A stretch of DNA of 64,000 nucleotides from an uncultured delta proteobacterium (GTDB taxonomy: Bacteria; Desulfobacterota; RBG-13-43-22): the NCBI GenBank assembly GCA_963843145.1, contig CAWJJC010000021.1:1-64000 (forward strand), read 5' to 3'. Both the position numbers and the translations under genes were made by a program. Below, in pieces: positions 36,281-55,581 of this stretch. Numbering within the stretch: the first letter of the stretch is position 1; each line of letters opens with the position of its first letter. The notes beneath the pieces were generated by a model. The model did not search any database and had not been told where the DNA came from. It saw only the letters and a list, made by a program, of their open reading frames with translations.

Positions 36281-37021
36281 ATGGATCTTAAGGTCCCCTC
36301 ATCCGTAACCTTGTTTATTCCCTGTCTGATGGATTCCCTTTATCCCCGGGCGGCCCAGGACCTGCTGGTTTTGCTGAAAAAGTGCGGCTTCCGAGTGGAT
36401 TATCCCCGGGACCAGACCTGCTGCGGGCAGCCAGCTTTTAACCAGGGGTATTTTGATGTCGCCCGGAAGCTGGCTCGCCGGTTTCTCGATATATTTGAAT
36501 CGTCGGAATGCATTGTCTGCCCCTCCGGTTCCTGCACGGCCATGGTCAGGAATCACTACCCGGAACTTTTGACGACTGAGCCGGTCTGGCTGGAAAAGGC
36601 CCAGGCCGTGGGGGGGAAAATTTTTGAGGCCTCACAGTTCCTGACCACCTTCGCGGTATCCGAAAAGATTCGGGCCCGTTTCCAGGGAAAAGTCACTTAT
36701 CACGACTCCTGCCACTCCGCCCGCGGCCTGGGAATATACGAGGAGCCCAGGCGGTTGCTCTCTCAGGTCAAAGGGCTGGAGTTGGTTGAAATGGCCGATT
36801 CCAAGGCCTGCTGCGGTTTCGGCGGGCTGTTTTCCCGGCGTTTTCCCGAGGTCTCGCAGGCCATCACCGGGGAAAAGATAAAACAAATCCTGGCTACCGG
36901 GGCGGAATGGGTGGTCGGCAACGACCCGGGCTGCTTGATGAATATCCAGGGAGGTTTGAACCGGCTCAAGTCGCCGATCAAGGTTAAACACCTCGTGGAA
37001 ATTTTAAACAGCCGTTCCTGA
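36281..37021 (+). CDS. lutA: Lactate utilization protein A (CCG domains)
   Basis: LFIPC, QTCCGQPAFN, PSGSC, TYHDSCH, CCGFGGLF. Confidence 0.88.
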   Translation: MDLKVPSSVTLFIPCLMDSLYPRAAQDLLVLLKKCGFRVDYPRDQTCCGQPAFNQGYFDVARKLARRFLDIFESSECIVCPSGSCTAMVRNHYPELLTTEPVWLEKAQAVGGKIFEASQFLTTFAVSEKIRARFQGKVTYHDSCHSARGLGIYEEPRRLLSQVKGLELVEMADSKACCGFGGLFSRRFPEVSQAITGEKIKQILATGAEWVVGNDPGCLMNIQGGLNRLKSPIKVKHLVEILNSRS

Positions 37022-37024
37022 TCT

Positions 37025-38386: not shown

Positions 38387-38948
38387 TTGGCTCGACCGGC
38401 TGGAACTGGAACTCAAGGCCCTGCAGGCCCGAACCTTTCGGGCCGAGGACCCGGCCGCTTTAAAGGAAATTTTACAAACACTATGTCGGGACAGTCTTCC
38501 TGAGGCCGTAGCCCGGGAAGACCGCCCCTGGCTGGAAAAACTGGATCTGGGATTTCCCGTTTATCAGCCAGCGGATAGACTTCATCCGGGAAACGGGTCA
38601 TGGAAGCCGCTTCGGGATATTACCGTGGGGATCACCGGGGTGGATTATGCTTTGGCGGAAACCGGCACCCTGGTGCTGGCTTCGGGACAGGCGAGGGGAC
38701 GAGGACTTTCCTTGGCCCCTCGTCACCATATCGCCTTGTTGCCCCAGGAGCGTATTCTGCCCTCCCTGGACCAGTTCCTGGACCTTTATTCCGACGGGGA
38801 AAGCTTTTTGTTTCAGGGCAGCGCCGTGACCTTTATTTCCGGGGCCAGCCGCACGGCGGACATTGAGCTGAACCTGGTCCTCGGCGCCCACGGTCCCAAG
38901 GAATTGAGTGTCATTACCCTCTGTTTTCCGGTGGGGATAGCGGGTTGA
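38373..38948 (+). CDS. lutC: Lactate utilization protein C (LUD domain)
   Basis: GITG..ALAETGT..ISGASRTADIE..GAHGP. Confidence 0.88.
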   Translation: MDRTDWLDRLELELKALQARTFRAEDPAALKEILQTLCRDSLPEAVAREDRPWLEKLDLGFPVYQPADRLHPGNGSWKPLRDITVGITGVDYALAETGTLVLASGQARGRGLSLAPRHHIALLPQERILPSLDQFLDLYSDGESFLFQGSAVTFISGASRTADIELNLVLGAHGPKELSVITLCFPVGIAG

Positions 38949-39000
38949 TAGTTTGAGGTTACGTCCAGAACGAGAATAGAATCGATGATCTCGTCGGGTC

Positions 39001-39062
39001 TAATAATCAATAATCAATTTTTAATTCTCAATTAATCATTAACCGGTGACTATTGATTATTG
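39001..39062. repeat. AT-rich heptamer repeat element
   Basis: aataatc aataatc aattttt aattctc.. closing with gactattgattattg. Confidence 0.65.
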
Positions 39063-39100
39063 TTTTTTTCGTAACTAAAGAAAACGAGGAGTTCTAATTC

Positions 39101-40090
39101 ATGCCCATTTTTATTCAAGGAACCGGATCGTATCTCCCTCCCCAGGTGTTGCATAACCGAGACCTGGAAAAAATATTGGAGACCAACGATGAATGGATCA
39201 CCCAGCGGACCGGGATTCGTGAGCGGCGGGTGGCCGAGCCCCAGGTGGCCGCCTCCGACCTGGCCCTGGAGGCCTCCCGGAGGGCTTTGGAAATGGCCGG
39301 GATGAAGGTGGCGGACCTGCAGCTCATCATCGTAGCCACCATCACCCCGGATACCCACTGCCCGGCCGCGTCCAACTGGTTGCAGGCCAAATTGGGGGCC
39401 GACCAGGCGGTGACTTTTGACATTACCGCCGCCTGTTCCGGTTTCGTTTTTGCCCTGAACGTGGCGGAACAATATCTGAAGGCCGGGACTTTCCAAACGA
39501 TCCTGGTCGTGGCCTCGGAGATCATGACTCGAACCTTAAACTGGAAAGACCGGACTTCGGCCATCCTCTGGGGTGACGGGGCCGGTGCCGTGGTGTTGAC
39601 CGTGGATCAAGGAGGGCAGGGCCACCCGATCCTCTCCACCCACATTCACACCGACGGGGCCAACGGGGCCAACCTGCTCCTGCCGGGTGGCGGCTCCAAG
39701 ACCACGCCCATCTCCCATGAAAGCGTGGATCGGGACCTCCATACGCTTAAACTCATCGAGGCCAGCGCCTCGGTGCGGGTGGCGGTGAAACATTTTGCCG
39801 AAGCCTGTGTCGAAGCGGTAGAAACCAACGGGTACACCCTGGGAGAGGTGGACTGGGTAATTCCCCACCAGGCCAACCTGCGAATGCTCCAATCTCTGGC
39901 CAAGCGGCTGAATGTGCCTATAGAAAAGTTCTATCTGACGTTGCAGAAATTCGGGAATATTTCGTCGGCTTCCATCCCCATCGCTTTGGACGAGGCAGTC
40001 CGGACGGGGGCCATTCGGAAAGACCAGTTGGTAGTGCTAACGGCCTTTGGGGGAGGATTGACTTGGGCGAGCGCGCTGATTAGGTGGTAA
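39101..40090 (+). CDS. fabH: 3-oxoacyl-ACP synthase III
   Basis: GTGSYLP, WITQRTGI, AACSGF, GDGAGA, PHQAN, GNISSAS, AFGGGLTW. Confidence 0.95.
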   Translation: MPIFIQGTGSYLPPQVLHNRDLEKILETNDEWITQRTGIRERRVAEPQVAASDLALEASRRALEMAGMKVADLQLIIVATITPDTHCPAASNWLQAKLGADQAVTFDITAACSGFVFALNVAEQYLKAGTFQTILVVASEIMTRTLNWKDRTSAILWGDGAGAVVLTVDQGGQGHPILSTHIHTDGANGANLLLPGGGSKTTPISHESVDRDLHTLKLIEASASVRVAVKHFAEACVEAVETNGYTLGEVDWVIPHQANLRMLQSLAKRLNVPIEKFYLTLQKFGNISSASIPIALDEAVRTGAIRKDQLVVLTAFGGGLTWASALIRW

Positions 40091-40131
40091 CAAAGGAACA
40101 GAGGAAAGGGACGAGGATCAACCATAAAGAA

Positions 40132-40268
40132 AAATCCGAAATTCGAAGCACGAAATCCGAAACAAGCACGAAGGTCCAAAATCACAATGTTCAAAACGAG
40201 AAACTTTTGAATTTTGATATTTGGTCATTTGAATTTGTTTCGGATTTGGATATTCGAATTTCGGATTT
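40132..40268. repeat. Heptamer-built inverted-repeat element (empty form; copies at 48718-48902 and 59335-59462)
   Basis: aaatccgaaattcgaagcacgaaatccgaaacaa...ttgtttcggatttggatattcgaatttcggattt. Confidence 0.85.
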
Positions 40269-40298
40269 AAACCAATAAGATAGGATGAAAGGCCTGGA

Positions 40299-41558
<1,260 letters not shown>

Positions 41559-41588
41559 TTATCCTTTCTATTGAGGCCTATTTCGCGG

Positions 41589-42779
41589 CTATTTTTTGGA
41601 AGCCCGCAGTTTATTATGAATTCCGGCTTTTCCCCGGAGGACGTCGATCTTGTCGATCTTTTCCCAGGTGAAACCGGGTTCAGTCCGTCCGAAGTGGCCA
41701 TAGGCCGCCGTGTCTTTAAAAATCGGGCGCAACAAGTTCAGGTGCCGGATGATGTCGGCCGGTTTGAAACTGAAGGTCTCCCGGATGATGCGGTTTAACT
41801 GATCATCGGGAAGCTTCCCGGTCCCGCGGGTATCCACGAAAATGGAAAGCGGGTCGGCCTGTCCGATGGTATAGGCCACCTGGAGCCGACAGACGTCGGC
41901 CAGACCGGCGGCGACCACGTTTTTGGCCACATAGCGGGCCATATAGGAAGAACTGCGATCTACTTTGGAGGGATCCTTCCCGGAAAAGGCTCCGCCTCCG
42001 TGGCTTCCCCGGCCCCCGTAGGTGTCGGCGATGATTTTTCGGCCGGTCATGCCGCAGTCCCCCAAGGGGCCGCCGACGACGAAACGCCCGGTGGTGTTGA
42101 TCAAGAACTGGGTTTTCTTGTTCAGCAAAGAGGCCGGAATGACTTTTTTGATCACGGTTTCAATAATGCCTTCCCGGAGTTTTTTATAGGTGACATCGGG
42201 GGTGTGCTGGGCGGCAATCACCACGGTGGGGATGGAAACCGGTTTTCCATTTAAATACTCCACGGTCACCTGGGTCTTCCCGTCAGGGCGGAGGAATTTA
42301 AGGATACCCTTTTTGCGGACCTCCGCCAGTCGTCGCGCCAGTCGATGGGCGTACCAAATAGGCATGGGCATATAATCTTTGGTTTCGTTGCAGGCGTAAC
42401 CGAACATCATCCCCTGGTCTCCGGCCCCCTGTTCTTTCTTCACGTCTCCGTTGACCCCCTGAGCGATATCCGGAGACTGCTTGTCGATGCTGGTCAAGAC
42501 GGCGCAGGTCTCCCAGTCGAAACCCATGGAAGAATCGTTATACCCTATTTCCTTGATGGTCCGCCGGACGATTCCCGGCATTTCCACGTAAGTGTTCGTG
42601 GTAATCTCTCCGGCAATTAGAACCAAGCCGGTGGTGACCAGGGTCTCGCAGGCGACCCGGGAGTTGGGGTCATCCTTTAAAATGGCATCCAAGATGGAAT
42701 CCGAGATCTGATCGGCTACTTTGTCCGGATGACCTTCGGTGACCGATTCCGAGGTAAAAAAATAGTTGGCTGAACTCAT
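41589..42779 (-). CDS. metK: Methionine adenosyltransferase
   Basis: [35 protein letters not shown]. Confidence 0.97.
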
Positions 42780-42847
42780 GGGCAACCCTCCTTGAAAAAA
42801 TAAACCATATTAGTCAATCAGTTACAATTGTCAAGCCTTAAATATGT

Positions 42848-43504
42848 TTAAATAGACGGCGGGCGGGCGGCGGAGCCGGAAGAAGGGTGGCTGTTGGCCC
42901 CCGGAGCGATCAAGCCTCCGGAAACAATCAGCTTGAAGGCCTCCTCAACGGTCATTTGAAGAAAATGCAGCTCTTTTTCCGGGGCCAGCACGTAATAACC
43001 GGTGGTGGGATTGGGGGTACAGGGGATAAAAATATGCCAGATCCGTTCGCCGGCCTGACGTTCCAGTTCACCCCGGGCCGGGCCTGCGGAGAATCCTATG
43101 GAAAATACCCCCTTTCGAGGGAATTCCAACATCACCACCTGTTTAAAATGGCCGCCCGAATTCAGGAAGATGGCCTCGGTGAATTGTTTTAAGGCCTGGT
43201 AAATATTCCGGACTATGGGAATTCGGCGTACTAAGGCCTCCCATAAACCCACCATCTTTTTCCCGGCATAATTGTGGGTCGCTATACCGACCACCAAGAG
43301 GAGAAGCGTCAAGAGGACCAGGCCCAAACCAGGGAGGTGAAACCCCAGCAGGGTGTCAGGGTGGTAGGTCTTGGGGATAACGGAAAGGAATTCATCCATG
43401 ACCCCGATCAGGGCCTGGATGATATAGATGGTGATGGCCACCGGAATGACGACGATCAGCCCGGTGAGGAGGGATTTTTTTATCCAGTTTTTTAGGCGGG
43501 ACAC
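42848..43504 (-). CDS. DUF502 membrane protein
   Basis: TGLIVVIP, RIPIVRNIY, EFPRKG, PCTPNPTTG. Confidence 0.9.
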   Translation of the reverse strand: MSRLKNWIKKSLLTGLIVVIPVAITIYIIQALIGVMDEFLSVIPKTYHPDTLLGFHLPGLGLVLLTLLLLVVGIATHNYAGKKMVGLWEALVRRIPIVRNIYQALKQFTEAIFLNSGGHFKQVVMLEFPRKGVFSIGFSAGPARGELERQAGERIWHIFIPCTPNPTTGYYVLAPEKELHFLQMTVEEAFKLIVSGGLIAPGANSHPSSGSAARPPSI

Positions 43505-43516
43505 CCCGGGCCTCTA

Positions 43517-43876
43517 CTAAGCGGCTCTGAGCAAACGGCGATTCCCGGCGTCCACCTGGACGATCTTCGGTTGAAAATTCTTCAGCTCTTGTTCGTTCAG
43601 CGCAGCGTAGGTGGCAATGATGATCAGGTCCCCCACCACCCCTCTGCGGGCGGCCGCTCCGTTCAGGCAGATCTCCCCGCTTCCGCGGGCCCCTTCCACG
43701 GCATAGGTTTCAAATCGCTCCCCATTGGAAATGTTATAGACGTTGATTTGCTCAAAGGGCAGGATATCGGCGGCTTCCATCAGGTCCAGGTCTATGGTCA
43801 TACTGCCCTGGTAATGGATATTGCTATCCGTGATCGTTGCCCGATGGATTTTGGATTTTAAAAGGTGGCGCAGCAT
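43517..43876 (-). CDS. panD: Aspartate 1-decarboxylase
   Basis: [32 protein letters not shown]. Confidence 0.96.
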
Positions 43877-43878
43877 GG

Positions 43879-44727
43879 TTACTCTACCTCCAATAGATAG
43901 TTATCGATCAGTCGGGTTTTGCCGACCCGGACCGCCAGGGCTAGAATGCCCTGAGGATTGATTGTTTCCAATTCTTTCAGGGTTTGGGGGTGAACGATTT
44001 TGGCATAGTCGATCCGATTTTCCGGGTGGCTGGACAGGACCTGGGTTACTTCGGCCAGGATTGATCCGGTTTCCCGTTCTCCCTCTCGGCACCTTTTTTG
44101 GGCGGCTGAAATGGACTGAGAGAGGGACAGGGCGGCCATTCGGTCCTCCGCTGAAAGATACACATTTCTGGAGCTCATGGCCAACCCGTCGGCTTCCCGA
44201 ACAGTCGGTCGGCCGATGACCTCGATGTCCATATTCAGGTCCCGGACCATTTGCTTAATGGTGACCACCTGTTGGTAGTCCTTCAGCCCGAAAATCGCCA
44301 TGTGTGGTTTAACTAATTGAAACAACTTGCAAACAATGGTAGCTACCCCTCGGAAATGCCCCGGCCGACTGGCCCCGCATAAGCCCTGAGTGACCTCCTC
44401 CACGGAAACGTACGTCTGATAGTCCTCCGGGTAAAGGTCTTCATGGCGGGGGGTAAAGAGGATATCCATCCCCGCCTCTTCGGCTAGTTGACGGTCCCGC
44501 TCGAAGTCGCGGGGGTATTTTTCGAAATCCTCCCCGACCCCGAACTGCAAGGGGTTGACGAACAGACTGACCACTACCTTATCGGCCACTTCCCGGCCGT
44601 GGTTCATTAAATTTAGGTGGCCGGAGTGGAAAAAACCCATGGTCGGCACCAAGGCAATCGTCCTCCCGGTCCGACGTTGATTATCCGCCCAGGATTGCAT
44701 GACTTTAAGTTCTTGAATGATTTCCAT
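43879..44727 (-). CDS. panC: Pantoate--beta-alanine ligase
   Basis: [46 protein letters not shown]. Confidence 0.96.
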
Positions 44728-44744
44728 ATGCGAGTCCATCAAAC

Positions 44745-44985: not shown

Positions 44986-45126
44986 ATGGCGACCTTGAAA
45001 ACCACCGATTCCATCCAGGAATATCCCCGGCAGATTCGGAACCGTAAGCTATTAGAAGGACTGCAGCAGGGCGGTTCCGAAGAAATAGACCGCCAGGAAA
45101 AAGGGTTGGCGGACGGAAAGAAGTAG
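44986..45126 (+). CDS. Putative 46-aa small protein
   Basis: Open frame MATLKTTDSIQEYPRQIRNRKLLEGL.. just downstream of the promoter; weak RBS. Confidence 0.3.
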   Translation: MATLKTTDSIQEYPRQIRNRKLLEGLQQGGSEEIDRQEKGLADGKK

Positions 45127-45382
45127 CATTATCTCCACCTTTTGCTCGAATTACGGGAAAGGCAATCTAATCAGGGGGGATACTCCCTACCCGTACCAGT
45201 AGGCAACTTTAATCACCAACCCCTTGTGATTTGTTCGCTGAGAAGAATTAGGTCTTCAAATGGATTTTACCATTTTTTGCGAGAGCTTAGGAAACTCGGA
45301 GGGTATTTCAGAGGGTTGAATTCCCTTGACATATAACGACTTTTGATTATAGTAAACAGTTTATTTTAATTGCGGATAGACT

Positions 45383-45922
45383 TTGATGGCTGATTTAGCC
45401 CCGAAGACGAAAATTATCCCGGTAGAAGCCATCCTCCGGGAGCGGTTGACCATTAACCAGGTCCTTGACCGGGACTGGTTAAAAGAGCAGATCCGGGAAA
45501 GAAATCTGGACTTTTCCCCCGTTGGAGCGTTCTCTTTGGCCGGAGATCTTTTCGCTGCCGGATCGGAGATTTTTTTTCGAGGACGCCTGAAAGCGGAGTT
45601 TCGTCTTTCCTGCGGTCGGTGCCTGGAAGAATTCAGCATCAAAATGGACGATCCGCTGGAAGCCCAATGGCGGGTGTTCAGTCCCCCAGGGTCGAAAGGC
45701 GGCGGGAACCCGGATCAAAGGATTCAGTTGGAGGACCTGGAGACCGGGGTCAGGCAGGAAGAAGGGATTGATCTTTGGGAGACGATGCTGGAACAGGTTA
45801 TCCTGCATCTTCCCATGCGGCCTTTGTGCCGTGATTCCTGTCAAGGTTTGTGTCCGGTCTGCGGCGAAAATAGAAATATCCACCCCTGCCGGTGCGGAGA
45901 AAAGGGGAAAAACAACATTTGA
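45383..45922 (+). CDS. YceD/DUF177 protein
   Basis: CGRCLE, LPMRPLCRDSCQGLCPVCGENRN..CRC; upstream of rpmF. Confidence 0.9.
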   Translation: MMADLAPKTKIIPVEAILRERLTINQVLDRDWLKEQIRERNLDFSPVGAFSLAGDLFAAGSEIFFRGRLKAEFRLSCGRCLEEFSIKMDDPLEAQWRVFSPPGSKGGGNPDQRIQLEDLETGVRQEEGIDLWETMLEQVILHLPMRPLCRDSCQGLCPVCGENRNIHPCRCGEKGKNNI

Positions 45923-46077
45923 CGGACTCGCAAAAAGTCCGTCAGCAGCCCGAGCGCGGTTAAGCGCCGGGCTGGGGTGAGGGTGGTACCATTTGAATTC
46001 ACTTCAAATGGCGGGGGAGGGGAAGCCCTTCCCCGCCGAGCAGAAAGTCGTTTTTAGACTTTTTGCGAGGTCATCAA
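45919..46077. mobile_element. MITE-like element with 21-bp terminal inverted repeats
   Basis: ttgacggactcgcaaaaagtc / gactttttgcgaggtcatcaa (18/21); caacatttga repeated at both junctions; three internal hairpins. Confidence 0.75.
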
Positions 46078-46128
46078 CATTTGATGGTTTAAGAAAAATT
46101 CAGCTTAGCTGATTCTGGAGGAAACGCA

Positions 46129-46311
46129 ATGGCTTTACCTAAAAGAAGACATTCCCGGTCGCGGCAGGGAAAAAGGCGGGCCCATGATGCCTTGACGGCT
46201 CCGTCTCTGTCCGTCTGCCCGCAGTGCCACGAACCCAAACTCCCCCATTTTGTCTGTCCCTCCTGCGGGATCTATCGTGGGCGGAAAGTGGTTGTTCAGG
46301 AAGAGGAATAG
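46129..46311 (+). CDS. rpmF: 50S ribosomal protein L32
   Basis: [30 protein letters not shown]. Confidence 0.97.
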
Positions 46312-46349
46312 GGATCAGCGCGGGTCCATCCGGCTTGGGGAATCAATTT

Positions 46350-47414
46350 TTGAATCCGATTAGAATTGCCGTCGATGCCATGGGCGGGGATCAGGCGCCG
46401 AGCGCCGCGGTACTGGGGGCTGTTCTGGCCACCAGGGAGCTGGGCATCCCTATTGTCCTGGTGGGGAACCCCGAGGCCATTAAGCAGGGGTTGGCCGGAC
46501 AAACATTTAACCGGGAGCTGATTACCATCCACCCGGCTGCGCAGGTGGCCGAGATGAGCGATGCCCCCATCGAGGTCATTCGAAAAAAGAAGGATGCCTC
46601 CATTCGGGTGGCCTTGGAGCTGGTCAAAAAGGGGGAAGTCCAGGGGGTAGTCAGCGCCGGGAACTCCGGCGCCACCATGGCCTTAAGCGTAGTGGTCCTG
46701 GGCAAGCTGCCCGGGGTGGACCGTCCGGCCTTAGGGGCTATTTTACCTTCACCCCATACCCCGACGCTGGTCATCGACGTAGGGGCCAATGTAGATTGTT
46801 CGGCATCCCAGTTGATCCAGTTCGCCATCATGGCCGAACCCCTGGCTCGGTATATCATGAAACGGCCCAATCCCCGGATCGGCCTGTTGAGCATCGGGGA
46901 GGAAGAGTCCAAAGGAAATGAACTGGTTCACCAGACCTTCGAGGGGTTGAAGAAGACCCCCCTGAATTTCGTCGGCAATGTGGAAGGGCGAGACCTTTTC
47001 AGCGGGAAGGTCGACGTGATCGTTTGCGACGGATTCGTGGGGAATGTCTGCCTTAAATTGAGTGAGGGACTGGCCGAAGCCCTTGGCCAGATGCTGAAGC
47101 AAGAAGTCCTGAAAGCGGGCCTGGTTTCCAAGCTGGGGTCTCAATTGATGAAGCCGGCGTTTAATCGTTTTTTTAAAAGGGTGGATTACGCCGAAGAGGG
47201 AGGGGTTCCTCTTCTGGGGGTCAACGGGGTAGTGGTTATCAGCCACGGGGCTTCCGGACCCAAGGCCATCATGAATGCCGTTCGGGTGGCCCGGCGGGCG
47301 GTTGAGAACCGGATCATCGACCAGGTTCTCGATTCCTTGAACCGGCACGAGCCTTTCTATCGAAGAAATAAACCCCAACGCTTTTGGGAGAGCTTCCGGA
47401 AGAAAACCGGCTAA
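46350..47414 (+). CDS. plsX: Phosphate acyltransferase PlsX
   Basis: IAVDAMGGD, SAGNSGA, GVDRPA, DVGANVD, IGEEESKG, DGFVGN, SHG. Confidence 0.96.
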   Translation: MNPIRIAVDAMGGDQAPSAAVLGAVLATRELGIPIVLVGNPEAIKQGLAGQTFNRELITIHPAAQVAEMSDAPIEVIRKKKDASIRVALELVKKGEVQGVVSAGNSGATMALSVVVLGKLPGVDRPALGAILPSPHTPTLVIDVGANVDCSASQLIQFAIMAEPLARYIMKRPNPRIGLLSIGEEESKGNELVHQTFEGLKKTPLNFVGNVEGRDLFSGKVDVIVCDGFVGNVCLKLSEGLAEALGQMLKQEVLKAGLVSKLGSQLMKPAFNRFFKRVDYAEEGGVPLLGVNGVVVISHGASGPKAIMNAVRVARRAVENRIIDQVLDSLNRHEPFYRRNKPQRFWESFRKKTG

Positions 47415-47430
47415 CCACGGGTCGGAAGAC

Positions 47431-47509
47431 GAGATCCTTCGCTTTGCTCAGGATGACAGTGGAGCGAAGGGCTCAGGATGAAAGATTGGGACTTTTCGCA
47501 AGAATATCA
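47431..47509. repeat. REP-like remnant plus MITE-like end
   Basis: gagatccttcgctttgctcaggatgaca..gctcaggatga; gacttttcgcaagaatatca resembles the right TIR at 46057-46077. Confidence 0.55.
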
Positions 47510-47561
47510 GGTAATACCAATCAAAAATATCTCTGGTTCAAATTGTTAAGAGGGGTTCAAC

Positions 47562-48719
47562 ATGGATTACTTCCTGACCGAAGAGCAGCAGATGATCAAA
47601 GAGATTGCCCGAAAAATCGCCGACGAGCGCATCAAACCGGTTCGGGCTGAATTGGATGAAAAGGAGGAATTCCCCTGGGATATTCTTAAGCTGATCGGCC
47701 AGTCGGACCTCTTTGGCGTCTATATACCCCAGGAATACGGCGGTTTCGGGGGAGGAAGCTTCGAAAATTGTCTGGCCGTGGAGGAATTGTCCCGGGCCTG
47801 TCTGGGTGTTTCCACCAGTTACGCGGCCAGCGCCCTGGGGGCGTACCCGCTCCTTTTATACGGCAACGAAGAGCAGAAGAAAAGATATTTGCCCGAAATC
47901 GCCAGCGGCCGGAAGCTGGCCGCTTTCGCGCTGACCGAATCCACGGCCGGCAGTGACGCCAGCGGCATCATGACTACGGCGGAATTAAAGGGAAACGACT
48001 ATATCCTCAACGGCACGAAACAATGGATTACCAATGGGGGCGAGGCGGAGATCTATACCGTGATCGCCATCACCGACCGCAGCAAGGGCCCTCGCGGGGC
48101 CAGCGCCTTTGTCCTGGAAAAGGGCGATCCCGGTTTTGATTTCGGTAAGAAAGAAAGTAAGATGGGTATACGGGCTTCGGCCACCCGGGAACTGATTTTC
48201 AACCAATGCCGGATCCCCAAAGACCGGTTGATCGCCCGGGAGGGGATGGGTTTTATCGTGGCCATGAAAACCTTCGACCAGTCCCGTCCCGGGGTGGGGG
48301 CTCAAGGGGTCGGCCTGGCCCAGGGGGCGCTGGAGGAGGCCGTTCAATACGCCCGTACCCGCGTCCAATTCGGCAAACCCATTATTGCCTTTCAAGCCAT
48401 CCAACACCTGCTGGCTGACATGGCTACGCTGACCGAGGCGGCCCGAGCCCTGGTCTACTCGGTGGCCCGGTATGTCGACAGCGGGGCCAAGGAGGTATCC
48501 AAGGTGTCCGCCATGGCCAAAGTCTTCGCCAGCGACACGGCCATGAAAGTGACTACCGACGCCGTTCAAGTTTTTGGAGGGACCGGATACATGCGGGATT
48601 ACCCGGTTGAAAAGATGATGCGTGATGCCAAGATCCTGCAAATCTACGAAGGCACCAACCAGGTTCAGCGCAACATCATCGGCCAGGAGCTGAATAAAGA
48701 AGGCGGAAGGAAAAAATAA
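47562..48719 (+). CDS. Acyl-CoA dehydrogenase (Bcd/CarC-like)
   Basis: AFALTESTAGSDA, LNGTKQWITNG, KMGIRAS, QFGKPI, QVFGGTGY, IYEGTNQVQR. Confidence 0.95.
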   Translation: MDYFLTEEQQMIKEIARKIADERIKPVRAELDEKEEFPWDILKLIGQSDLFGVYIPQEYGGFGGGSFENCLAVEELSRACLGVSTSYAASALGAYPLLLYGNEEQKKRYLPEIASGRKLAAFALTESTAGSDASGIMTTAELKGNDYILNGTKQWITNGGEAEIYTVIAITDRSKGPRGASAFVLEKGDPGFDFGKKESKMGIRASATRELIFNQCRIPKDRLIAREGMGFIVAMKTFDQSRPGVGAQGVGLAQGALEEAVQYARTRVQFGKPIIAFQAIQHLLADMATLTEAARALVYSVARYVDSGAKEVSKVSAMAKVFASDTAMKVTTDAVQVFGGTGYMRDYPVEKMMRDAKILQIYEGTNQVQRNIIGQELNKEGGRKK

Positions 48720-48902
48720 ACTCGAAATTCGAAGCACGAAATCGACTCGGCTGAGCCTTTCGGTAAACTCAAGGCCCTGAGCTTGTCGAAGGGCTCGTCG
48801 CAGGCCGAAACAAACACCAAGGCTCAAAACCCAAATGATCAAAACTAAAACGTTTAGAATCTTGAATCTCGGTCATTTGGATTTGTTTCGGTTTTCGGAT
48901 TT
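48718..48902. repeat. Heptamer IR element carrying a nested 62-bp palindromic insertion (48744-48805)
   Basis: Compared with the empty copy at 40132-40268. Confidence 0.85.
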
Positions 48903-48933
48903 ATCCAAAGAAGATAAGAAAAACCAATAACTT

Positions 48934-49734
48934 ATGCATATCATAGTTTGTTTGAAACAAGTCCCCGATGCCCGGCAGGTCAAGCTGGATCCGGAGACCC
49001 ACACCCTGATTCGTTCCGGGGTGGAAAGCATCATCAATCCGTACGATATGTATGCCCTGGAAGAAGGGTTGCGGATCAAAGAGCGGTTGGAAGGCACCGT
49101 GACGGTGCTGACCATGGGCCCGCCGCAGGCCGAAGCCGCGTTACGGGAGGCCATTTCCTACGGGGCGGATGAGGCGGTACTGCTTTCGGACCGGGCCTTT
49201 GCCGGGGCCGATACCTGGGCGACTACCTATACCCTGGCTCGGGGCGTTGAAAAAATCGGGCCCTTTGATTTGATCCTTTGCGGCAAGCAGGCCGTTGACG
49301 GGGACACCGCCCAGGTAGGACCCGGGCTGGCCGAACGGCTTTCTCTGCCTTATGCTGCCTGGGTGAGAAAGATCGAAACCCTGGAGCAGGGGTTGATCCG
49401 GGTCCAACGCCTGATGGATGACGGCTACGATCGTCTGGAACTTGCCCTTCCGGCCCTGCTGACCGTGGTTAAGGAGATCAATGAACCCCGGGTTCCTTCA
49501 TTAAAAGGGAAGATGCGGGCCAAGAGTCAAAAGATCCCCCTTTACGGCGCAGCCGATATCGGGGCCGATCCCCAGCAGACCGGTCTGGCCGGTTCCTATA
49601 CCCAGGTCATTCGGATTTTCGCCCCGGTGCGCGCCCGGGAAAAGGAGTGGTTGACGGGTTCGGTGGAGAACCAGGTGGGGCAGCTCCTTCAAAAATTATC
49701 CGCCCGGCAATTAATACCTGCTGCTATTTCCTGA
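48934..49734 (+). CDS. etfB: Electron transfer flavoprotein beta subunit (bifurcating-type motifs)
   Basis: VCLKQVPD, INPYD, DRAFAGADTWAT, GKQAVDGDTAQVGP. Confidence 0.95.
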   Translation: MHIIVCLKQVPDARQVKLDPETHTLIRSGVESIINPYDMYALEEGLRIKERLEGTVTVLTMGPPQAEAALREAISYGADEAVLLSDRAFAGADTWATTYTLARGVEKIGPFDLILCGKQAVDGDTAQVGPGLAERLSLPYAAWVRKIETLEQGLIRVQRLMDDGYDRLELALPALLTVVKEINEPRVPSLKGKMRAKSQKIPLYGAADIGADPQQTGLAGSYTQVIRIFAPVRAREKEWLTGSVENQVGQLLQKLSARQLIPAAIS

Positions 49735-49750
49735 TCGAGGTCGGCGCACG

Positions 49751-50950
49751 ATGGGTTCTGAAATTTTGATCGACTTAGAGCGGTGTTCCGGTTGCGAAAG
49801 CTGTCTGGAAGTCTGCCCCTTCAGTGCGCTGGAATGGCGCGACGGAAAACCGGTGGTCAACGACCAATGCACGCTCTGCGGGGCCTGCGCCGAGGTTTGC
49901 CCGGAAGAAGCGATTACCCTTCCGGAAAGGGCTTCGGCGAGCGGTCCGGAAGCAGGCTATCAGGGCGTGATGGTTTTTGCCGAACAGCGTCTGGGGCGAT
50001 TGGCGGATGTGGCCTTTGAACTGCTGGCGAAGGGCCGCGAATTGGCCGGTACCCTGGGCGTGAACCTGACGGCGGCCTTATTGGGGCGGAATCTGGCCCC
50101 CTTGGCGGCGGAGCTGGTGGCGCAGGGGGCCGATCGGGTCTATACGGTGGATCATCCCCGGGTGGAGGGATTTACCGACGAAGCTTACGGGGAGGCCCTG
50201 ACCCAGATTATCCGGACGGTTCGGCCGGAAATCCTGCTGGCCGGCGCAACCTCCGTCGGCCGTTCCTTTATCCCCAAAGTGGCCACCCAGGTGGGCACGG
50301 GGTTGACGGCCGACTGCACCGATTTAACTATCGATCCGGAAAAAAAACATCTGCTGCAGACCCGTCCGGCCTTTGGGGGCAATATTATGGCCACCATTAT
50401 CTGTCCGCGGAGGCGTCCGCAAATGGCCACGGTCAGAGCCCGGGTGATGAAACGAGGGGCGGTACAGCCCGGACGACCCGGGGAAGTGGTCCCCTTTGAG
50501 GTGGATTGGAAACGGGTGCCCGGTAAAACCAGGCTGCTGGAAATTGTCGAAGAACTTACGGAGAAAGTGCGGCTGGCCGAAGCCGATATTATCGTGACGG
50601 GAGGCCGGGGTTTGCAGGAGGGAAAAAATTTTTCTCTGATCCGGGAATTGGCCGATTGTCTGGGCGCGGCCGTGGGGGCCTCCCGGGGGGCGGTGGATTC
50701 GGACTGGATTCCCTACGCCCATCAAGTGGGGCAAACCGGGAAGACCGTGGCCCCTAAATTGTATCTGGCCGTCGGCGTTTCCGGGGCGGTCCAGCATTTG
50801 GTGGGCATGCAGTCCTCCGAAACCATTGTGGCCGTGAACATTGATCCCCAGGCCCCTATCTTTGACGTGGCCACCTATGGTATAGTGGGCGACCTTTTTG
50901 AGGTGGTCCCGGAGATGATCCGGCAATTAAAAGCGGCCGGGGGGCGGTAA
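49751..50950 (+). CDS. etfA: Electron transfer flavoprotein alpha subunit with N-terminal 2x[4Fe-4S] ferredoxin domain
   Basis: [24 protein letters not shown]; [30 protein letters not shown]. Confidence 0.95.
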
Positions 50951-50967
50951 AGCCTAAGGGAGAGCGT

Positions 50968-51711
50968 ATGTCGGAACAGATGATAATATTAATTACCGGA
51001 GCTTCCCGAGGGATCGGCCGGGCCATCGCCCTGCGGCTGGCCCAGCCGGGGGTAGTCCTCCTGTTGAACCATTACGACCGGGAACCGGACGCGGCCGAAC
51101 ACACACTGCAGGACGTTGTGGAGCGGGGCGCTCAGGGGAAGATTTACTATTACAATGTGGCCGAATTCCAGGAAACCCAAGCTCAGGTGGAAGGGATGCT
51201 GGCGGAATGGGGTCGGATCGAGGTGCTGGTTAATAATGCCGGCATCACCCGAGACACCCTGTTGATGCGCATGAAGGAAGAAGATTGGGACCTGGTGCTG
51301 AACATCAATCTCAAGGGGGTTTATAATTCCACCCAGGCGGTCATTCGTTCCATGATTAAAAATAAGTTCGGTAAGATCGTCAATATCGCCTCGGTGGTCG
51401 GAGCCATAGGAAATGCCGGGCAATCCAATTACGCCGCTTCCAAGGCGGGGATCATCGGGTTCAGCAAATCGGTGGCTAAGGAAGTGGCCGGTCGGGGCAT
51501 TACGGTCAACGCCGTGGCCCCCGGCTTTATCGACACGGAAATGACCGCCGTTCTGCCTGCACCGGTACGCCAGGAGTTTTTGAAATCCATCCCCATGGGC
51601 CGCAGCGGGCAACCCGAGGAGGTGGCCGAACTGGTGGCCTTCCTGATCTCGGGAGCGGCCGCGTATATTACCGGCCAGGTGATTCATATCAACGGGGGGA
51701 TGTATATGTGA
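50968..51711 (+). CDS. fabG: 3-oxoacyl-ACP reductase
   Basis: TGASRGIG, NNAGITRD, NYAASKAG, VAPGFI. Confidence 0.95.
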   Translation: MSEQMIILITGASRGIGRAIALRLAQPGVVLLLNHYDREPDAAEHTLQDVVERGAQGKIYYYNVAEFQETQAQVEGMLAEWGRIEVLVNNAGITRDTLLMRMKEEDWDLVLNINLKGVYNSTQAVIRSMIKNKFGKIVNIASVVGAIGNAGQSNYAASKAGIIGFSKSVAKEVAGRGITVNAVAPGFIDTEMTAVLPAPVRQEFLKSIPMGRSGQPEEVAELVAFLISGAAAYITGQVIHINGGMYM

Positions 51712-51780
51712 GGGGCTCGGACGAGCCCCCCCATATGAATCCTGAAAATAAGGGGGCGACATTATCCTAAGTAAGTGAGA

Positions 51781-51818
51781 TCAATAATTAATAATCAATT
51801 GTTAATTATTAACTATTA
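51781..51818. repeat. AT-rich heptamer repeat
   Basis: caataattaataatcaattgttaattattaact. Confidence 0.6.
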
Positions 51819-51891
51819 ATGAGAGCCTTGTGGTGCCGAATATATATTTTCATAATAAAGTAAGTAAGCAAGTAAAGGAGGGTAATCACCC

Positions 51892-52125
51892 ATGACTGTC
51901 GAAGAAAAAGTAAAGGCTATTATTCGTGAACAGTTGAGTGTTTCCGAGGAGGACGTGGTTTCCCAGGCCTCCTTTGTGGATGATTTGGGAGCGGATTCTT
52001 TGGACCTGGTGGAAATGATCATGGCCATGGAGGAAGCCTTCAATATTTCGATTGCTGATGAAGATGCCGAGAAAATAAAAACCGTTCAAGACGCCATAAA
52101 TTATGTGCAGGAACATTCCAAGTAA
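51892..52125 (+). CDS. acpP: Acyl carrier protein
   Basis: [12 protein letters not shown]. Confidence 0.97.
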
Positions 52126-52152
52126 CGGGAAGCAAAAACCCTGCTCCCCGGT

Positions 52153-53409
52153 GTGAGGAGGAAGGTCTTGAAAAAACGCGTAGTGGTAACCGGTCTGGGA
52201 CTGGTAACTCCGGTGGGAATCGGGGTGCAGGAGAGCTGGGAAGCACTCTGCCGGGGGAAATCCGGGATCGGGCCGATTACCCGTTTTGACGCCGGCGGTT
52301 TTAAAACCCGGATCGCGGGCGAGGTCAAGGGGTTTAAACCCGAAGACTTTGTTCCCCAGAAGATGATCAGGCGGTTGGATGTCTTTATCCACTACGCCCT
52401 GGCGGCCGCCCGCATGGCGAAGGAACAGTCCCGCTTGCGGATCACCCCGGAATTGGCCCCTTGGGTCGGGGTAATCACCGGCAGCGGGCTGGGGGGGTTG
52501 CGGACCATCGAGGAAACCCATAAGACCCTGCTTTCCAGGGGTCCGGATCGGATCAGTCCGTTTTTTATTCCCATGATCATCGCCAACATGGCCCCCGGTC
52601 AAATCGCTATCGAATTCGGGGCCAAAGGCCCCAATCTTTCACTGGAGACGGCTTGCGCCGCCGGGGCCCATGCCATTGGGGATTCTTTCAAATTGATTCA
52701 GCGCGGGGCGGCCAAGGTGATGTTCTGCGGGGGGGTGGAATCGGTTATCACCCCCTTGGCGGTGGGCGGGTTCAATGCCATGAGGGCCCTTTCCACCCGG
52801 AACGACGAACCGGAAAAGGCCTCCCGTCCTTTCGATCGGGACCGGGACGGGTTTGTCATGGGCGAAGGCAGCGGCATCTTGCTGCTGGAGGACCTGGACT
52901 TTGCCCTGGAACGAGGGGCTTTGATCCTGAGCGAAATTGTGGGCTATGGATTGACCGGGGACGCCTATCACATGACGGCCCCTTCACCGGATGGAGACGG
53001 GGCCATTCGCTGCATGCAGATGGCCCTGAGTGACGCCGGATTGGCTCCGCAGGAAATTCAATACATCAATGCCCACGGCACCTCCACCGAGTTGAATGAC
53101 GCCGCCGAGACCAAGGCCATCAAGGCCGTCTTCCGGGAGCACAGCCGTCGAGTGGCGGTCAGTTCGACCAAGTCCATGACCGGTCACCTCCTGGGGGGCG
53201 CGGGCGGCGTGGAGGCGGCAATATCGGTCCTGGCCCTGGTGAACGGGATGATCCCGCCAACAATCAACTATGAAACTCCGGATCCGGATTGCGACCTGGA
53301 TTATGTCCCCAACCAGGTCCGGAAGGCGGATCTCTCCTGTGTCCTTTCCAACTCTTTTGGCTTCGGAGGGACCAACGCCGTGTTGATATTTAAAAAGTAT
53401 GTGCCCTAA
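52153..53409 (+). CDS. fabF: 3-oxoacyl-ACP synthase II
   Basis: [51 protein letters not shown]. Confidence 0.96.
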
Positions 53410-53866
53410 AAAAAGAAAAATCGACCTGATCCTCGGCGCCGATCACGGGGGAGTGGCCTTAAAGGAAATATTGCTACCTTACTTGACGACCCGGGGAATC
53501 CCTTGGGAGGATGTCGGGACTTTTGGGACCGAGTCGGTGGACTACCCGGATCTGGCCGGAAAAGTGGCCCAGGCTGTTTCTCGGGGGAAAGTCCCCCGGG
53601 GAATCCTGATCTGTGGGACCGGGATCGGGATGGCCATCACCGCCAATCGCTTTCCCAAGGTGCGGGCGGCGGTCTGTAACGACCTTTTTTCGGCCAAAAT
53701 GGCCCGGGCCCATAATGATGCCAATATCTTGGCCTTGGGCGGACGAATGATCGGACCGGGGCTGGCCCTGGAAATCGTGGAGACTTTTCTAAACACACCC
53801 TTTGAGAGGGGCCGTCACTTGAGAAGGATCCGAAAACTGGAGGTGGGTTGCTCGTGGGGGAAGTGA
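53399..53866 (+). CDS. rpiB: Ribose-5-phosphate isomerase B
   Basis: GADHGG, DYPD, CGTGIG, HNDANIL, RHLRRI. Confidence 0.95.
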
Positions 53867-55122
53867 GGAAAGGCAAAGGGCCGGCGCTGGCACAGGTGGA
53901 TCCTGAAGTCGCCCGGGCCATTCGCGGTGAGTTGAAAAGACAGAGCGAGAGGCTGGAATTAATCGCTTCGGAAAATTTTACCAGCCGGGCAGTGATGGAG
54001 GCCCAAGCCAGCGTGTTGACCAATAAATACGCCGAAGGGTATCCGGGAAAACGGTATTATGGGGGCTGTGAATTCGTCGATCAGGTGGAAATCCTGGCCA
54101 TTGATCGGGCCCGAAGGCTTTTCCAGGCAGACTATGTCAATGTGCAACCCCATTCCGGATCTCAGGCCAATATGGCCATCTTATTTTCAGCCCTGGAACC
54201 CGGGGATACCATTTTGGGCATGGATCTGGCCCACGGCGGGCATCTGACCCACGGCAGCCCGGTAAGTTTTTCCGGGCGGTTTTTTAAAGTCCGCTCCTAC
54301 GGGGTGGACCGTCAGACCCAGCGGATCGATTACGGTCAGGTGGCCGATCTGGCCGGAAGCTGTCGTCCCAAGCTGATTATTGCCGGGGCCAGCGCCTATT
54401 CCCGAATCATCGACTTTGCCGCCTTTGCCCAAATCGCGCGAGAAGTCGGGGCCTTCCTGATGGTCGATATGGCCCATATCGCCGGGTTGGTGGCCGCCGA
54501 AGTTCACCCTTCCCCGGTGCCTTATGCCGACTTCGTCACCTCCACCACCCACAAGACGCTGCGTGGCCCCAGAGGCGGGCTGATTCTGGCCAAGGAAAAA
54601 TACGGCAAACTTTTGAACAGCCAGATTTTTCCGGGGATTCAGGGGGGCCCGATGATGCACACCATCGCCGCCAAGGCCGTGTCTTTTAAGGAGGCCTTAA
54701 CTCCGGAGTTCAAGGTCTATCAGCAGCAGGTAATTCGCAACGCCCAAAAATTGGCGGCTGAACTCATTAGCCGTGGATATAAACTGGTGGCCGACGGAAC
54801 GGACAATCACCTGATGCTGGTGGATTTGAGCACCAAGGATCTGACCGGGCTGGAAGCGGAAAAGGCCCTGGAAGCGGCCGGGATTACCGTGAATAAGAAT
54901 AGTATTCCCTTTGAGACCAAAAGCCCCCGGATCACCAGCGGGGTGCGCATCGGGACCCCGGCCGTCACCACCCGGGGGATGAAGGAGCCCGAAATGGGAC
55001 GCCTGGCGGAATTCATAGATCGGGCCTTGGCGCCGACGGCAAATAGCAAAGCGCTCCAGACTATTCGGGAAGAGGTTCGAAAATTCAGCCGGGGATTCCC
55101 GCTGTTTCCTCAAATCGGCTGA
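53848..55122 (+). CDS. glyA: Serine hydroxymethyltransferase
   Basis: [35 protein letters not shown]. Confidence 0.97.
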
Positions 55123-55125
55123 CCG

Positions 55126-55581
55126 ATGAATGCCGTGGGGCGACCTACCTGGATTGAGTATTTTATGGATATCGCCGACCTGGTAGCCAAGCGATCCACT
55201 TGCCTGCGCAGGCGGGTGGGGGCCGTGGCGGTCAAGGAAAAAAGGATTCTGGCCACCGGGTACAACGGAGTGCCGTCCGGGATTCCCCATTGTCTGGATG
55301 TCGGTTGCCTGAGGGAACAGGAAGGAATACCCTCGGGGGAACGGCATGAGCTTTGCCGGGGGATTCATGCCGAGCAGAACGTGATCATCCAGGCGGCCTA
55401 TTCCGGGGTAGCGATCCAGGGGGCCTCGCTGTACTGCACCAACCTGCCTTGCCTTATCTGTTCCAAGATGCTGATCAATGCCGGGATTCGGGAAATATTT
55501 TATCGGCAAGGGTACGCGGATCGTCTCTCCGAGGATATGCTCGAGACCGCTCGGGTGCCTTTAATCCAGATTACCCGGTAA
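55126..55581 (+). CDS. dCMP/cytidine deaminase family protein (ComEB-like)
   Basis: RSTCLRR, TGYNG, HAEQN, PCLIC. Confidence 0.92.

Follow-up and report, generated by a model that had tools for sequence, protein, structure and literature searches.

An acyl-CoA dehydrogenase and bifurcating-type electron-transfer flavoprotein in the fatty-acid synthesis operon of an uncultured delta proteobacterium: a candidate enoyl-ACP reductase

Organization of the acd-etfB-etfA locus

We analysed a stretch of 64,000 nucleotides (the window) from the genome of an uncultured delta proteobacterium of the Desulfobacterota (GenBank assembly GCA_963843145.1, contig CAWJJC010000021.1, positions 1 to 64,000). Within a fatty-acid synthesis operon, this window carries three genes that encode an acyl-CoA dehydrogenase (ACAD) family flavoprotein, Acd, and the two subunits of an electron-transfer flavoprotein (ETF), EtfB and EtfA. 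An initial annotation of this DNA, made from the sequence alone, had proposed that the trio might perform the enoyl-thioester reduction step in the type II pathway of fatty-acid synthesis, on acyl carrier protein (ACP) or CoA, or else supply short acyl-CoA primers. Here we examine Acd-EtfAB as a candidate enoyl-ACP reductase. All genes of the cluster lie on the + strand, in the order yceD-rpmF-plsX-acd-etfB-etfA-fabG-acpP-fabF-rpiB-glyA, and those directly relevant to lipid synthesis are as follows:

46129-46311, + strand: rpmF, ribosomal protein L32 (TIGR01031, 87 bits, cut-off 22.6)
46356-47414, + strand: plsX, phosphate acyltransferase (TIGR00182, 362 bits, cut-off 243)
47562-48719, + strand: acd, ACAD family flavoprotein of 385 aa (PF02771, PF02770, PF00441)
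48934-49734, + strand: etfB, small ETF subunit, bifurcating type (Pfam PF01012)
49751-50950, + strand: etfA, large ETF subunit (Pfam ETF, ETF_alpha and two N-terminal Fer4 stretches)
49751-49945, + strand: N-terminal 2x[4Fe-4S] ferredoxin domain of EtfA, residues ~1-65 (Fer4 x2)
50968-51711, + strand: fabG, 3-oxoacyl-ACP reductase (TIGR01830, 331 bits, cut-off 298)
51892-52125, + strand: acpP, acyl carrier protein (TIGR00517, 108 bits)
52153-53409, + strand: fabF, beta-ketoacyl-ACP synthase II (TIGR03150, 639 bits, cut-off 494)
39101-40090, + strand: fabH, away from the operon in this genome (TIGR00747, 363 bits, cut-off 292)

The reading frame of plsX is open from 46224, with the TIGR00182 match beginning at about 46356, and AcpP has a DSLD motif whose Ser36 is invariant in 17 of 17 sequences. 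Spacers are short between etfB and etfA (16 nt), etfA and fabG (17 nt, 50951-50967) and acpP and fabF (27 nt), and longer between plsX and acd (147 nt), acd and etfB (214 nt) and fabG and acpP (180 nt). The gene order from rpmF to fabF, the 17-nt gap and the remote position of fabH all agree with the initial annotation, as does the absence of fabD and of known enoyl-ACP reductases from the window: fabD lies on a separate contig (C28:431205-432143), fabZ is likewise off the window contig, and no FabI, FabK, FabL or FabV homologue was found within the window.

By sequence, the ETF is of the bifurcating type

Acd has the three-domain ACAD architecture (PF02771, 127 bits; PF02770, 89 bits; PF00441, 184 bits; all above cut-offs). 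Its Glu363, in the YEG motif (QIYEGTNQIQR), is invariant in 20 of 20 orthologues and is taken here to be the catalytic glutamate position, as in the medium- and short-chain dehydrogenases MCAD and SCAD. The closest solved match is the acyl-CoA dehydrogenase 5OL2_C (419 bits), followed by 4L1F_A (391 bits). None of the 24 NCBIfam ACAD models listed reaches its equivalog cut-off with Acd, the top one being AcrC (456 bits, cut-off 640).

EtfA begins with two CxxCxxCxxxCP motifs (C12/15/18/22 and C40/43/46/50) and has two N-terminal Fer4 stretches, in keeping with the 2x[4Fe-4S] domain of the initial annotation; among solved structures it matches CarE best (6FAH_A, 411 bits, alignment of residues 8-396, ferredoxin domain included). 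It scores 255-411 bits with chains of bifurcating-type ETFs, as compared with at most 179 bits with the other chains listed. For EtfB, the closest solved match is CarD (6FAH_B, 261 bits) and the runners-up are the small subunits of 7KOE, 7QH2, 5OL2 and 4KPU (216-224 bits), with the remaining five chains listed (2A1T_S, 1EFV_B, 1O94_C, 1EFP_B and 5OW0_B) at 98 bits or less. Human, Paracoccus and Methylophilus ETF chains thus score far lower with both subunits than do CarDE, LctBC, the Thermotoga ETF of 7KOE, 5OL2 and 4KPU; 5OL2 apart, these matched entries are largely presumed here to be proven bifurcating complexes. EtfB also contains INPYD and SDRAFAGADT, motifs already noticed in part in the initial annotation (NPYD, DRAFAGADT), which we take to mark the second FAD site; NADH-dependent ferredoxin reduction is a prediction. 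By its sequence, the ETF is of the bifurcating type, in the CarDE form; the earlier description of the trio as a bifurcating-type Acd/EtfAB holds at the level of its CarDE/Bcd-Etf type, bifurcation itself being a prediction.

Acd forms a single orthologue group across three phylum labels

Among 40 relatives (genomes are designated here by G numbers, loci by L numbers), 31 carry one Acd copy at least 66% identical, the next matches being no more than 53% identical. The paralogues of Acd in this genome are at most 49% identical to it, as compared with at least 65% within the orthologue group. Two of the nine relatives without an Acd orthologue, G008 and G018, are also without plsX, so that the operon is probably unassembled there. 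In an even draw of 121 genomes across the phylum, each at least 90% complete (the phylum sample), Acd was found in 57, with exactly one match each at E <= 1e-150. In a pattern scan of species genomes, encoding stretches numbered at least 596; the top 80 of them, at 68-99% identity, were examined, and their titles include Syntrophobacteraceae, Syntrophorhabdaceae, Desulfobulbaceae, Desulfobacca and Thermodesulfatator as well as Thermodesulfovibrionia, other Nitrospirota and Omnitrophota. In the tree, 117 sequences at least 65% identical, together with two at 59-61%, form one clade (support 0.95) that leaves out 21 paralogues of this genome. When identities are compared across families at the same loci, Acd (65-77%) is more conserved than FabF (56-68%), FabG (49-60%) and PlsX (42-58%).

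The two sequences at 59-61% come from the closed 1.8-Mb genomes G055 and G092 (L199, L200), where acd-etfB-etfA is situated away from fab genes and the adjacent Etf subunits are just 33-42% identical. Although it groups with the orthologue clade, this distant copy may be a different enzyme.

acd occupies an operon slot that fabK and fabI fill in other relatives

Genomic position was followed in three locus sets that overlap in part, from relatives (19 loci), the species scan (80) and the phylum sample (20). acd stands among fab or pls genes in all 19 relatives' loci, 56 of 80 species-scan loci and 18 of 20 phylum-sample loci, and this position recurs in no fewer than 17 families and under three phylum labels. 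The form found in the window, plsX-acd-etfB-etfA-fabG-acpP-fabF, is recurrent, and so are plsX-fabH-acd-etfB-etfA-(fabD)-fabG-acpP-fabF, a form without etf genes (plsX-acd-fabD-fabG-acpP-fabF) and plsX-fabH-acd-fabZ-acpP. Since these forms keep fabH and/or fabD beside acd, acd is no replacement of either gene, and the initial placement of the trio in a fabH-fabD slot had to be given up.

A different slot emerges from relatives that have no Acd orthologue. G022 has rpmF-plsX-fabK-fabD-fabG-acpP-fabF (FabK, 372 bits), G034 has rpmF-plsX-fabK-fabD-acpP (FabK, 479 bits, above the cut-off of 453) and G025 has plsX-fabH-fabI-fabD-fabG, with a FabI 52% identical to E. coli FabI. The Acd carriers G021, G031 and G035 have rpmF-plsX-acd-fabD-fabG-acpP-fabF, as does G033 minus fabG. 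It looks as though one enoyl reductase gene has displaced another in place. Of the 56 species-scan loci that are linked to fab genes, only L080 also holds a reductase-like gene, a distant member of the nitronate monooxygenase (NMO) family at 191 bits.

The conservation of the arrangement, which the initial annotation had made a test of its proposal, is therefore broad but not universal, as acd lies outside any fab cluster in 24 of the 80 species-scan loci. In 19 of these 24, nearly all from Nitrospirota-labelled records, acd stands alone (L051, for instance, has housekeeping neighbours). In the 11 lone-acd genomes examined, the rpmF operon ends after plsX-fabH with no further fab gene in the examined stretch, and in all 11 the fab genes are scattered anyway. 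Loci of this kind would be expected if the trio were a catabolic Bcd/Etf module that merely happens to be located in the operon and has no part in lipid synthesis, and this genome does have 15 ACAD matches at E <= 1e-60 and 7-10 matches each to FadA, AtoB and FadB. The position kept across families and phylum labels, the rank of Acd as the most conserved enzyme of the cluster and its retention where beta-oxidation genes are missing and no other ACAD is present all argue against such a module, to which we give hardly any credence.

The clusters also bear on whether the ETF bifurcates. Five of the 19 relatives' loci (G021, G026, G031, G033 and G035) have no etf genes in the cluster, and elsewhere in G021, G026 and G033 only an EtfA lacking the ferredoxin domain was found, indicating that Acd can apparently work with other ETFs. 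Acd could then be an enoyl-ACP reductase without bifurcation, to which electrons from NADH would pass simply through the ETF, while the ferredoxin domain may be an entry for reduced ferredoxin. In the acryloyl-CoA reductase complex of Clostridium propionicum, electrons reportedly go from NADH to the ETF and on to the dehydrogenase in this way, and the top NCBIfam models for the trio are indeed AcrC, AcrB and AcrA, all below their cut-offs (456/640, 222/475 and 349/600). Nevertheless, both subunits are far nearer to CarE/CarD, LctC/LctB, 7KOE, 5OL2 and 4KPU than to the human, Paracoccus and Methylophilus chains, and the ferredoxin domain of EtfA is retained in distant lineages (e.g. L112 and L020), which makes a non-bifurcating reductase rather unlikely in our view.

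Additional DNA occurs between the etf genes of several loci. In G029 (L020, 3027-9301) the order is rpmF-acd-[SAM methyltransferase]-etfB-[PEMT-family phospholipid methyltransferase]-etfA-fabG-acpP (SAM, S-adenosylmethionine). In Omnitrophota record CP070655.1, etfB and etfA are separated by a 282-aa open reading frame (ORF) that matches nothing in Pfam or NCBIfam (L112, 9040-9888), and L119 and L049 likewise have extra DNA there.

Strong canonical enoyl-ACP reductases are rarer in Acd-positive genomes

Known reductases were counted in the 57 Acd-positive and 64 Acd-negative genomes of the phylum sample, a strong canonical reductase being defined as a FabI at least 38% identical, a FabK of at least 370 bits or a FabL above cut-off. 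Any such reductase was present in 6/57 Acd-positive vs 24/64 Acd-negative genomes (Fisher p = 7e-4), and no FabI, FabK, FabL or FabV candidate at all was found in 28/57 vs 18/64 (Fisher p = 0.024); both p-values are uncorrected and overstate the difference because relatives are not independent. By type, FabI at the above identity was found in 1/57 (G021) vs 16/64 genomes, FabK at the above score in 1/57 vs 8/64 and FabL above cut-off in 4/57 vs 0/64. Weaker FabI-like matches, 30-34% identical and FabL carriers included, were more frequent in Acd-positive genomes (9/57 vs 3/64). FabV (PF12241) was found in none of 41 genomes and in none of the 121 of the phylum sample, in a search that was positive in G045. 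In the single-contig genomes G063 and G123 (99% complete), the cluster reads plsX-fabH-acd-etfB-etfA-fabG-acpP-fabF, and neither genome appears in any of the positive lists for FabK, FabI, FabL and FabV; both belong to the 28 Acd carriers without a candidate. The anti-correlation with known reductases that the initial annotation had suggested looking for is thus partial: strong reductases are rarer beside Acd, and in some genomes the two coexist.

Acd is the only ACAD found in an Omnitrophota scaffold in which no enoyl-CoA metabolism was detected

The 1.14-Mb Omnitrophota record CP070655.1 (G041, loci L139-L195) carries fabG-acpP-fabF-acd-etfB-(282-aa ORF)-etfA, rpmF-plsX-fabH-fabD and a separate fabZ. 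Its single ACAD is the one clustered with fabF, and FabI, FabK, FabL and FabV were not found. No homologue of E. coli FadA, AtoB or FadB was detected at E <= 1e-3, barring a 38-bit AtoB match inside fabF, in a search for which this study's genome served as positive control (7-10 matches per query). With no thiolase, crotonase or 3-hydroxyacyl-CoA dehydrogenase homologue, G041 would have no route to crotonyl-CoA, leaving FabZ as the only evident source of enoyl thioesters.

This gene content bears on whether Acd might be a CoA-specific, Bcd-like reductase that aids lipid synthesis indirectly, through butyryl-CoA or other short acyl-CoA primers for FabH or through a CoA-based bypass. Such a role would fit the nearest solved relative, which comes from the C. 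difficile EtfAB/Bcd complex, and the clusters in which acd is found directly 3' of fabH. The absence from G041 of the enzymes that would feed it weakens the primer option of the initial annotation; moreover, many carriers have no second ACAD candidate at first look (G047, G063, G081 and G086 have one each), and the operon slot is common to fabK and fabI, not to primer-forming genes. We therefore regard a CoA-specific enzyme as improbable.

Evidence against a reductase role

Several observations weigh against Acd acting as an enoyl-ACP reductase, in addition to the loci outside fab clusters and those without etf genes or a matching EtfA described above. Concerning the protein, the nearest characterised relatives of Acd all act on CoA thioesters and no ACP-selecting feature was identified; R28, K118, R173, R226, K236 and R303 are clade-specific basic residues but not evidence for ACP docking. 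Concerning G041, the record is titled 'chromosome' but holds 129 runs of exactly 100 N and is a scaffold of ~130 contigs of unknown completeness, so that the gene absences there are suggestive, not proof.

Known reductases do occur beside Acd. FabK-like genes at E <= 1e-50 are present in 23/57 Acd-positive genomes (33/64 Acd-negative). G021 has a FabI above cut-off (414 bits, cut-off 337), G043 a FabI 41% identical to that of E. coli, and G045 a FabV; FabL above cut-off accompanies Acd in G039, G084, G117 and G114. FabI-like members of the short-chain dehydrogenase/reductase (SDR) family with a Y-x6-K motif are found in G036 and G047, and weak FabI-like matches with the motif unchecked in G086, G114, G125 and G144. 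Such coexistence is compatible with a reductase role for Acd, since two reductases can occur in one bacterium (Enterococcus faecalis is described as having both FabI and FabK), although Acd then need not be essential in this organism.

The divergent SDRs of G047 (L121, 4052-5966) and G036 (L120, 4064-6262) score 157-182 bits with FabI models, below the cut-offs, and sit in second fab-like clusters, with fabZ-like and fabG-like genes in G047 and a fabH-like gene in G036.

Conversely, known reductases may be missing where Acd is also missing. The counts of genomes without a candidate cover FabI, FabK, FabL and FabV, with FabL2, FabI2, FabMG and reductases of the medium-chain dehydrogenase/reductase (MDR) type not searched for, and 18/64 Acd-negative genomes have none of the four, so that this absence is not specific to Acd carriers. 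G038 is one such case: it is 100% complete, has zero ACAD and no known reductase, and its plsX-fabH-fabD-fabG-acpP-fabF operon is canonical. The phylum thus seems to hold at least one further enoyl reductase that has gone unrecognised, and the absence of known reductases is no proof that Acd fills the gap. Acd-negative genomes without a reductase candidate are G038, G040 and 16 more of the phylum sample.

Finally, this genome itself may have another enoyl-ACP reductase. The expectation that a genome-wide search would turn up no other reductase was borne out for FabI, FabL and FabV. FabV (PF12242) was not found; no match to FabL reached E <= 1e-70 (20 of 33 candidates were scored); and no ORF among the 29 listed SDR hit regions has the Y-x6-K of FabI/FabL near residue 150 instead of YxxxK, 24 of the 29 having YxxxK. 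This motif test was validated on the FabI of E. coli, G025 and G021 and on the FabL of G039. For FabK the expectation held only in part: four FabK-like genes were found (316, 252, 240 and 231 bits), all below the TIGR03151 cut-off of 453 and none adjoining fab genes. The best of them (C22:288495-289472) is 47% identical to the operon FabK of G034, the same identity that the operon FabKs of G034 and G022 share with each other. Judged by this similarity, it may be a real FabK, in which case Acd may be dispensable to the organism as a reductase.

The fourth FabK-like gene (G000 C10:102001-115000, L011; 384 aa) has an insertion in its NMO domain and adjoins genes for an ACAD, for a thiolase (53% identical to AtoB) and for a protein resembling 3-hydroxyacyl-CoA dehydrogenase. 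This beta-oxidation-like cluster suggests an NMO-type enzyme for CoA esters rather than a FabK of fatty-acid synthesis.

Expression and flanking sequences

A fab-linked acd cluster is present on an uncultured Syntrophobacter chromosome (L077), and Sfum_1371 of Syntrophobacter fumaroxidans is presumably the fab-linked Acd orthologue. Two wetland metatranscriptome runs contain short contigs over plsX, acd, etfB and etfA that differ from the window at few positions; none spans a gene junction, DNA carry-over is possible and uncovered stretches carry no meaning, making the contigs a weak hint at expression. A study of S. fumaroxidans (PMC5947623), which cannot grow on butyrate or crotonate, reports that Sfum_1371, the acyl-CoA dehydrogenase in a predicted complex of the Bcd/Etf kind, was abundant under every condition, with the Etf Sfum_1372-73 at a lower level.

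The remaining features of the cluster are:

45383-45922, + strand: yceD (DUF177), first gene of the conserved cluster (Pfam PF02620, 72 bits)
47415-47561, no strand: plsX-acd spacer with a short dispersed palindromic repeat (blastn-short)
53399-53866, + strand: rpiB (TIGR01120, 175 bits)
53848-55122, + strand: glyA (Pfam SHMT, 570 bits)

In most related loci yceD is likewise 5' of rpmF, and the order of rpiB and glyA downstream is kept. The spacer repeat, at 47426-47477, has arms CCTTCGCT / AGCGAAGG and 17 more partial matches (blastn-short) on 12 other contigs of the genome. In two RNA runs, the bin 47320-47563 has a contig depth of 178-205, which elsewhere stays below 25; the probable reason is that the repeat occurs in many copies. 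Predicted promoter and terminator sites in 45000-55500 were not above shuffles (5 vs 5.4 and 13 vs 14.3) and so are uninformative about the operon's structure, and Rfam gave no match in 45000-54000. Upstream, at 36281-44742, panC (43879-44742), panD (43517-43876), a DUF502 gene, metK and ahcY lie on the opposite strand, and three lutABC-like genes (CCG and LUD domains), then fabH, on the + strand.

Proposed function and mechanism

Altogether, the conserved place of acd among fab genes, the slot shared with fabK and fabI and the 28/57 carriers without a known reductase carry the proposal that the trio serves type II fatty-acid synthesis considerably further than the window alone would, with ACP rather than CoA as the predicted carrier. 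That the Acd/Etf module belongs to lipid synthesis in some way is very probable. More specifically, we favour, with a little better than even confidence, an ETF-dependent enoyl-ACP reductase, which probably either replaces FabI, FabK or FabL as a non-orthologous enzyme or works alongside them. The ACP-bound substrate, the reductive direction, the partnership of Acd with this particular ETF and bifurcation are all parts of this reading that we infer.

The electrons could also flow the other way, in an oxidative acyl-ACP or acyl-CoA dehydrogenase for lipid modification, for example the anaerobic formation of unsaturated fatty acids as by Helicobacter FabX. ACADs that oxidise carrier-bound thioesters do exist; the prolyl-ACP dehydrogenase 4IRN matches Acd at 189 bits, the RedW, PigA and MbtN models match it below their cut-offs, and in G029 the cluster is interleaved with lipid-modifying genes, those of the SAM methyltransferase and the PEMT family. 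FabX itself (PMC8626469) offers a precedent for backtracking dehydrogenation. The type of the ETF and its ferredoxin domain, on the other hand, match NADH-driven reductive complexes, and there is no ETF:quinone oxidoreductase gene in the cluster. Moreover, FabZ makes trans-2-enoyl-ACP in each cycle, so that a plain dehydrogenase would add nothing unless it isomerised too. We consider an oxidative role very improbable.

If Acd is an enoyl-ACP reductase, homology to Bcd-EtfAB and CarCDE provides a model of how it might work. NADH would reduce the FAD of EtfB, from which one electron would pass, via the FAD of EtfA, to the FAD of Acd, and the other, at low potential, would reach ferredoxin by way of the two [4Fe-4S] clusters in the N-terminal domain of EtfA. 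After two rounds, the trans-2-enoyl-ACP that FabZ makes would receive a hydride at C3 from the reduced FAD of Acd and a proton at C2 from Glu363, and the acyl-ACP product would pass to FabF or PlsX. The predicted net reaction is 2 NADH + enoyl-ACP + 2 oxidised ferredoxin -> 2 NAD+ + acyl-ACP + 2 reduced ferredoxin. By analogy with these complexes, the module might be an enoyl-ACP reductase that also bifurcates, which we hold as a tentative possibility; equally tentative is its general form, in which a bifurcating Acd-EtfAB acting on enoyl-ACP ends every elongation cycle in Desulfobacterota, Thermodesulfovibrionia and other Nitrospirota, and Omnitrophota.

Of the steps in bacterial fatty-acid synthesis, the one catalysed by enoyl-ACP reductase sets the pace and varies most, and the enzyme is a drug target. 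The Acd cluster is widespread and unexpected in its operon place; if our reading is correct, it would define a new class of the enzyme, of a fold unrelated to the SDR and FabK types, and could explain the 28/57 Acd-positive genomes that have no known reductase. Bifurcation would have further consequences. Lipid synthesis would return two reduced ferredoxin per cycle, about 14 per C16 chain, and the potential drop from NADH to the enoyl thioester would be conserved rather than wasted, making this the first core biosynthetic pathway with a bifurcating step. Energy conservation would thereby extend to anabolism, which is relevant to the growth yields of organisms close to the thermodynamic limit (sulfate reducers, syntrophs and ultrasmall Omnitrophota), and the hydrogen-isotope signals of their lipids would have to be interpreted differently.

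Comparison with known systems

The component proteins are of known kinds and the novelty lies in their proposed use. The literature search, from which most subscription journals were absent, found no description of an ACAD/ETF enoyl-ACP reductase or of this gene order. In the sections consulted of a 2022 review (PMC9260719), the bacterial enoyl reductases are FabI, K, V, L, L2, I2 and MG, and the terms 'acyl-CoA dehydrogenase', 'electron transfer' and 'ferredoxin' have 0 occurrences. With FabI, FabL and FabV (SDR) and FabK (FMN TIM barrel), Acd shares the operon position and the proposed reaction, but it is unrelated to them in fold, cofactor (FAD plus an external ETF) and electron path.

In composition, the trio is closest to complexes that act on CoA esters. 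The usual context of Bcd-EtfAB is that of butyrate pathway genes. Like the Bcd-EtfAB of 5OL2, the trio combines an ACAD with conserved YEG-motif glutamate and a bifurcating-type EtfAB (EtfA matches 5OL2_A at 284 bits, and EtfB matches 5OL2_B at 220 bits). It differs in its setting in an rpmF-plsX-fab operon, in the extra N-terminal 2x[4Fe-4S] domain of EtfA and in the proposed substrate of Acd, which would be tethered to ACP and span all chain lengths. CarCDE of Acetobacterium woodii (6FAH) provides the top solved matches of both ETF subunits, whereas CarC matches Acd at just 309 bits, below 20 other distinct solved ACAD sequences, and the genomic context and presumed substrate differ. AcrABC of Clostridium propionicum (NF042970-72) gives the top NCBIfam models for Acd, EtfB and EtfA, at the sub-cut-off scores given above, with the best stretch of AcrA aligning only from EtfA residue 197.

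Finally, 4IRN, RedW, PigA and MbtN resemble the proposed enzyme in using the ACAD fold on carrier-protein-tethered thioesters. They are distant from Acd (4IRN, 189 bits; RedW, 254/650; PigA, 233/500; MbtN, 77/700), and they catalyse oxidations instead of reductions and are not known to have links with bifurcating ETFs. Nevertheless, these carrier-protein-dependent ACADs of secondary metabolism show that the ACAD fold can accept ACP-bound substrates.

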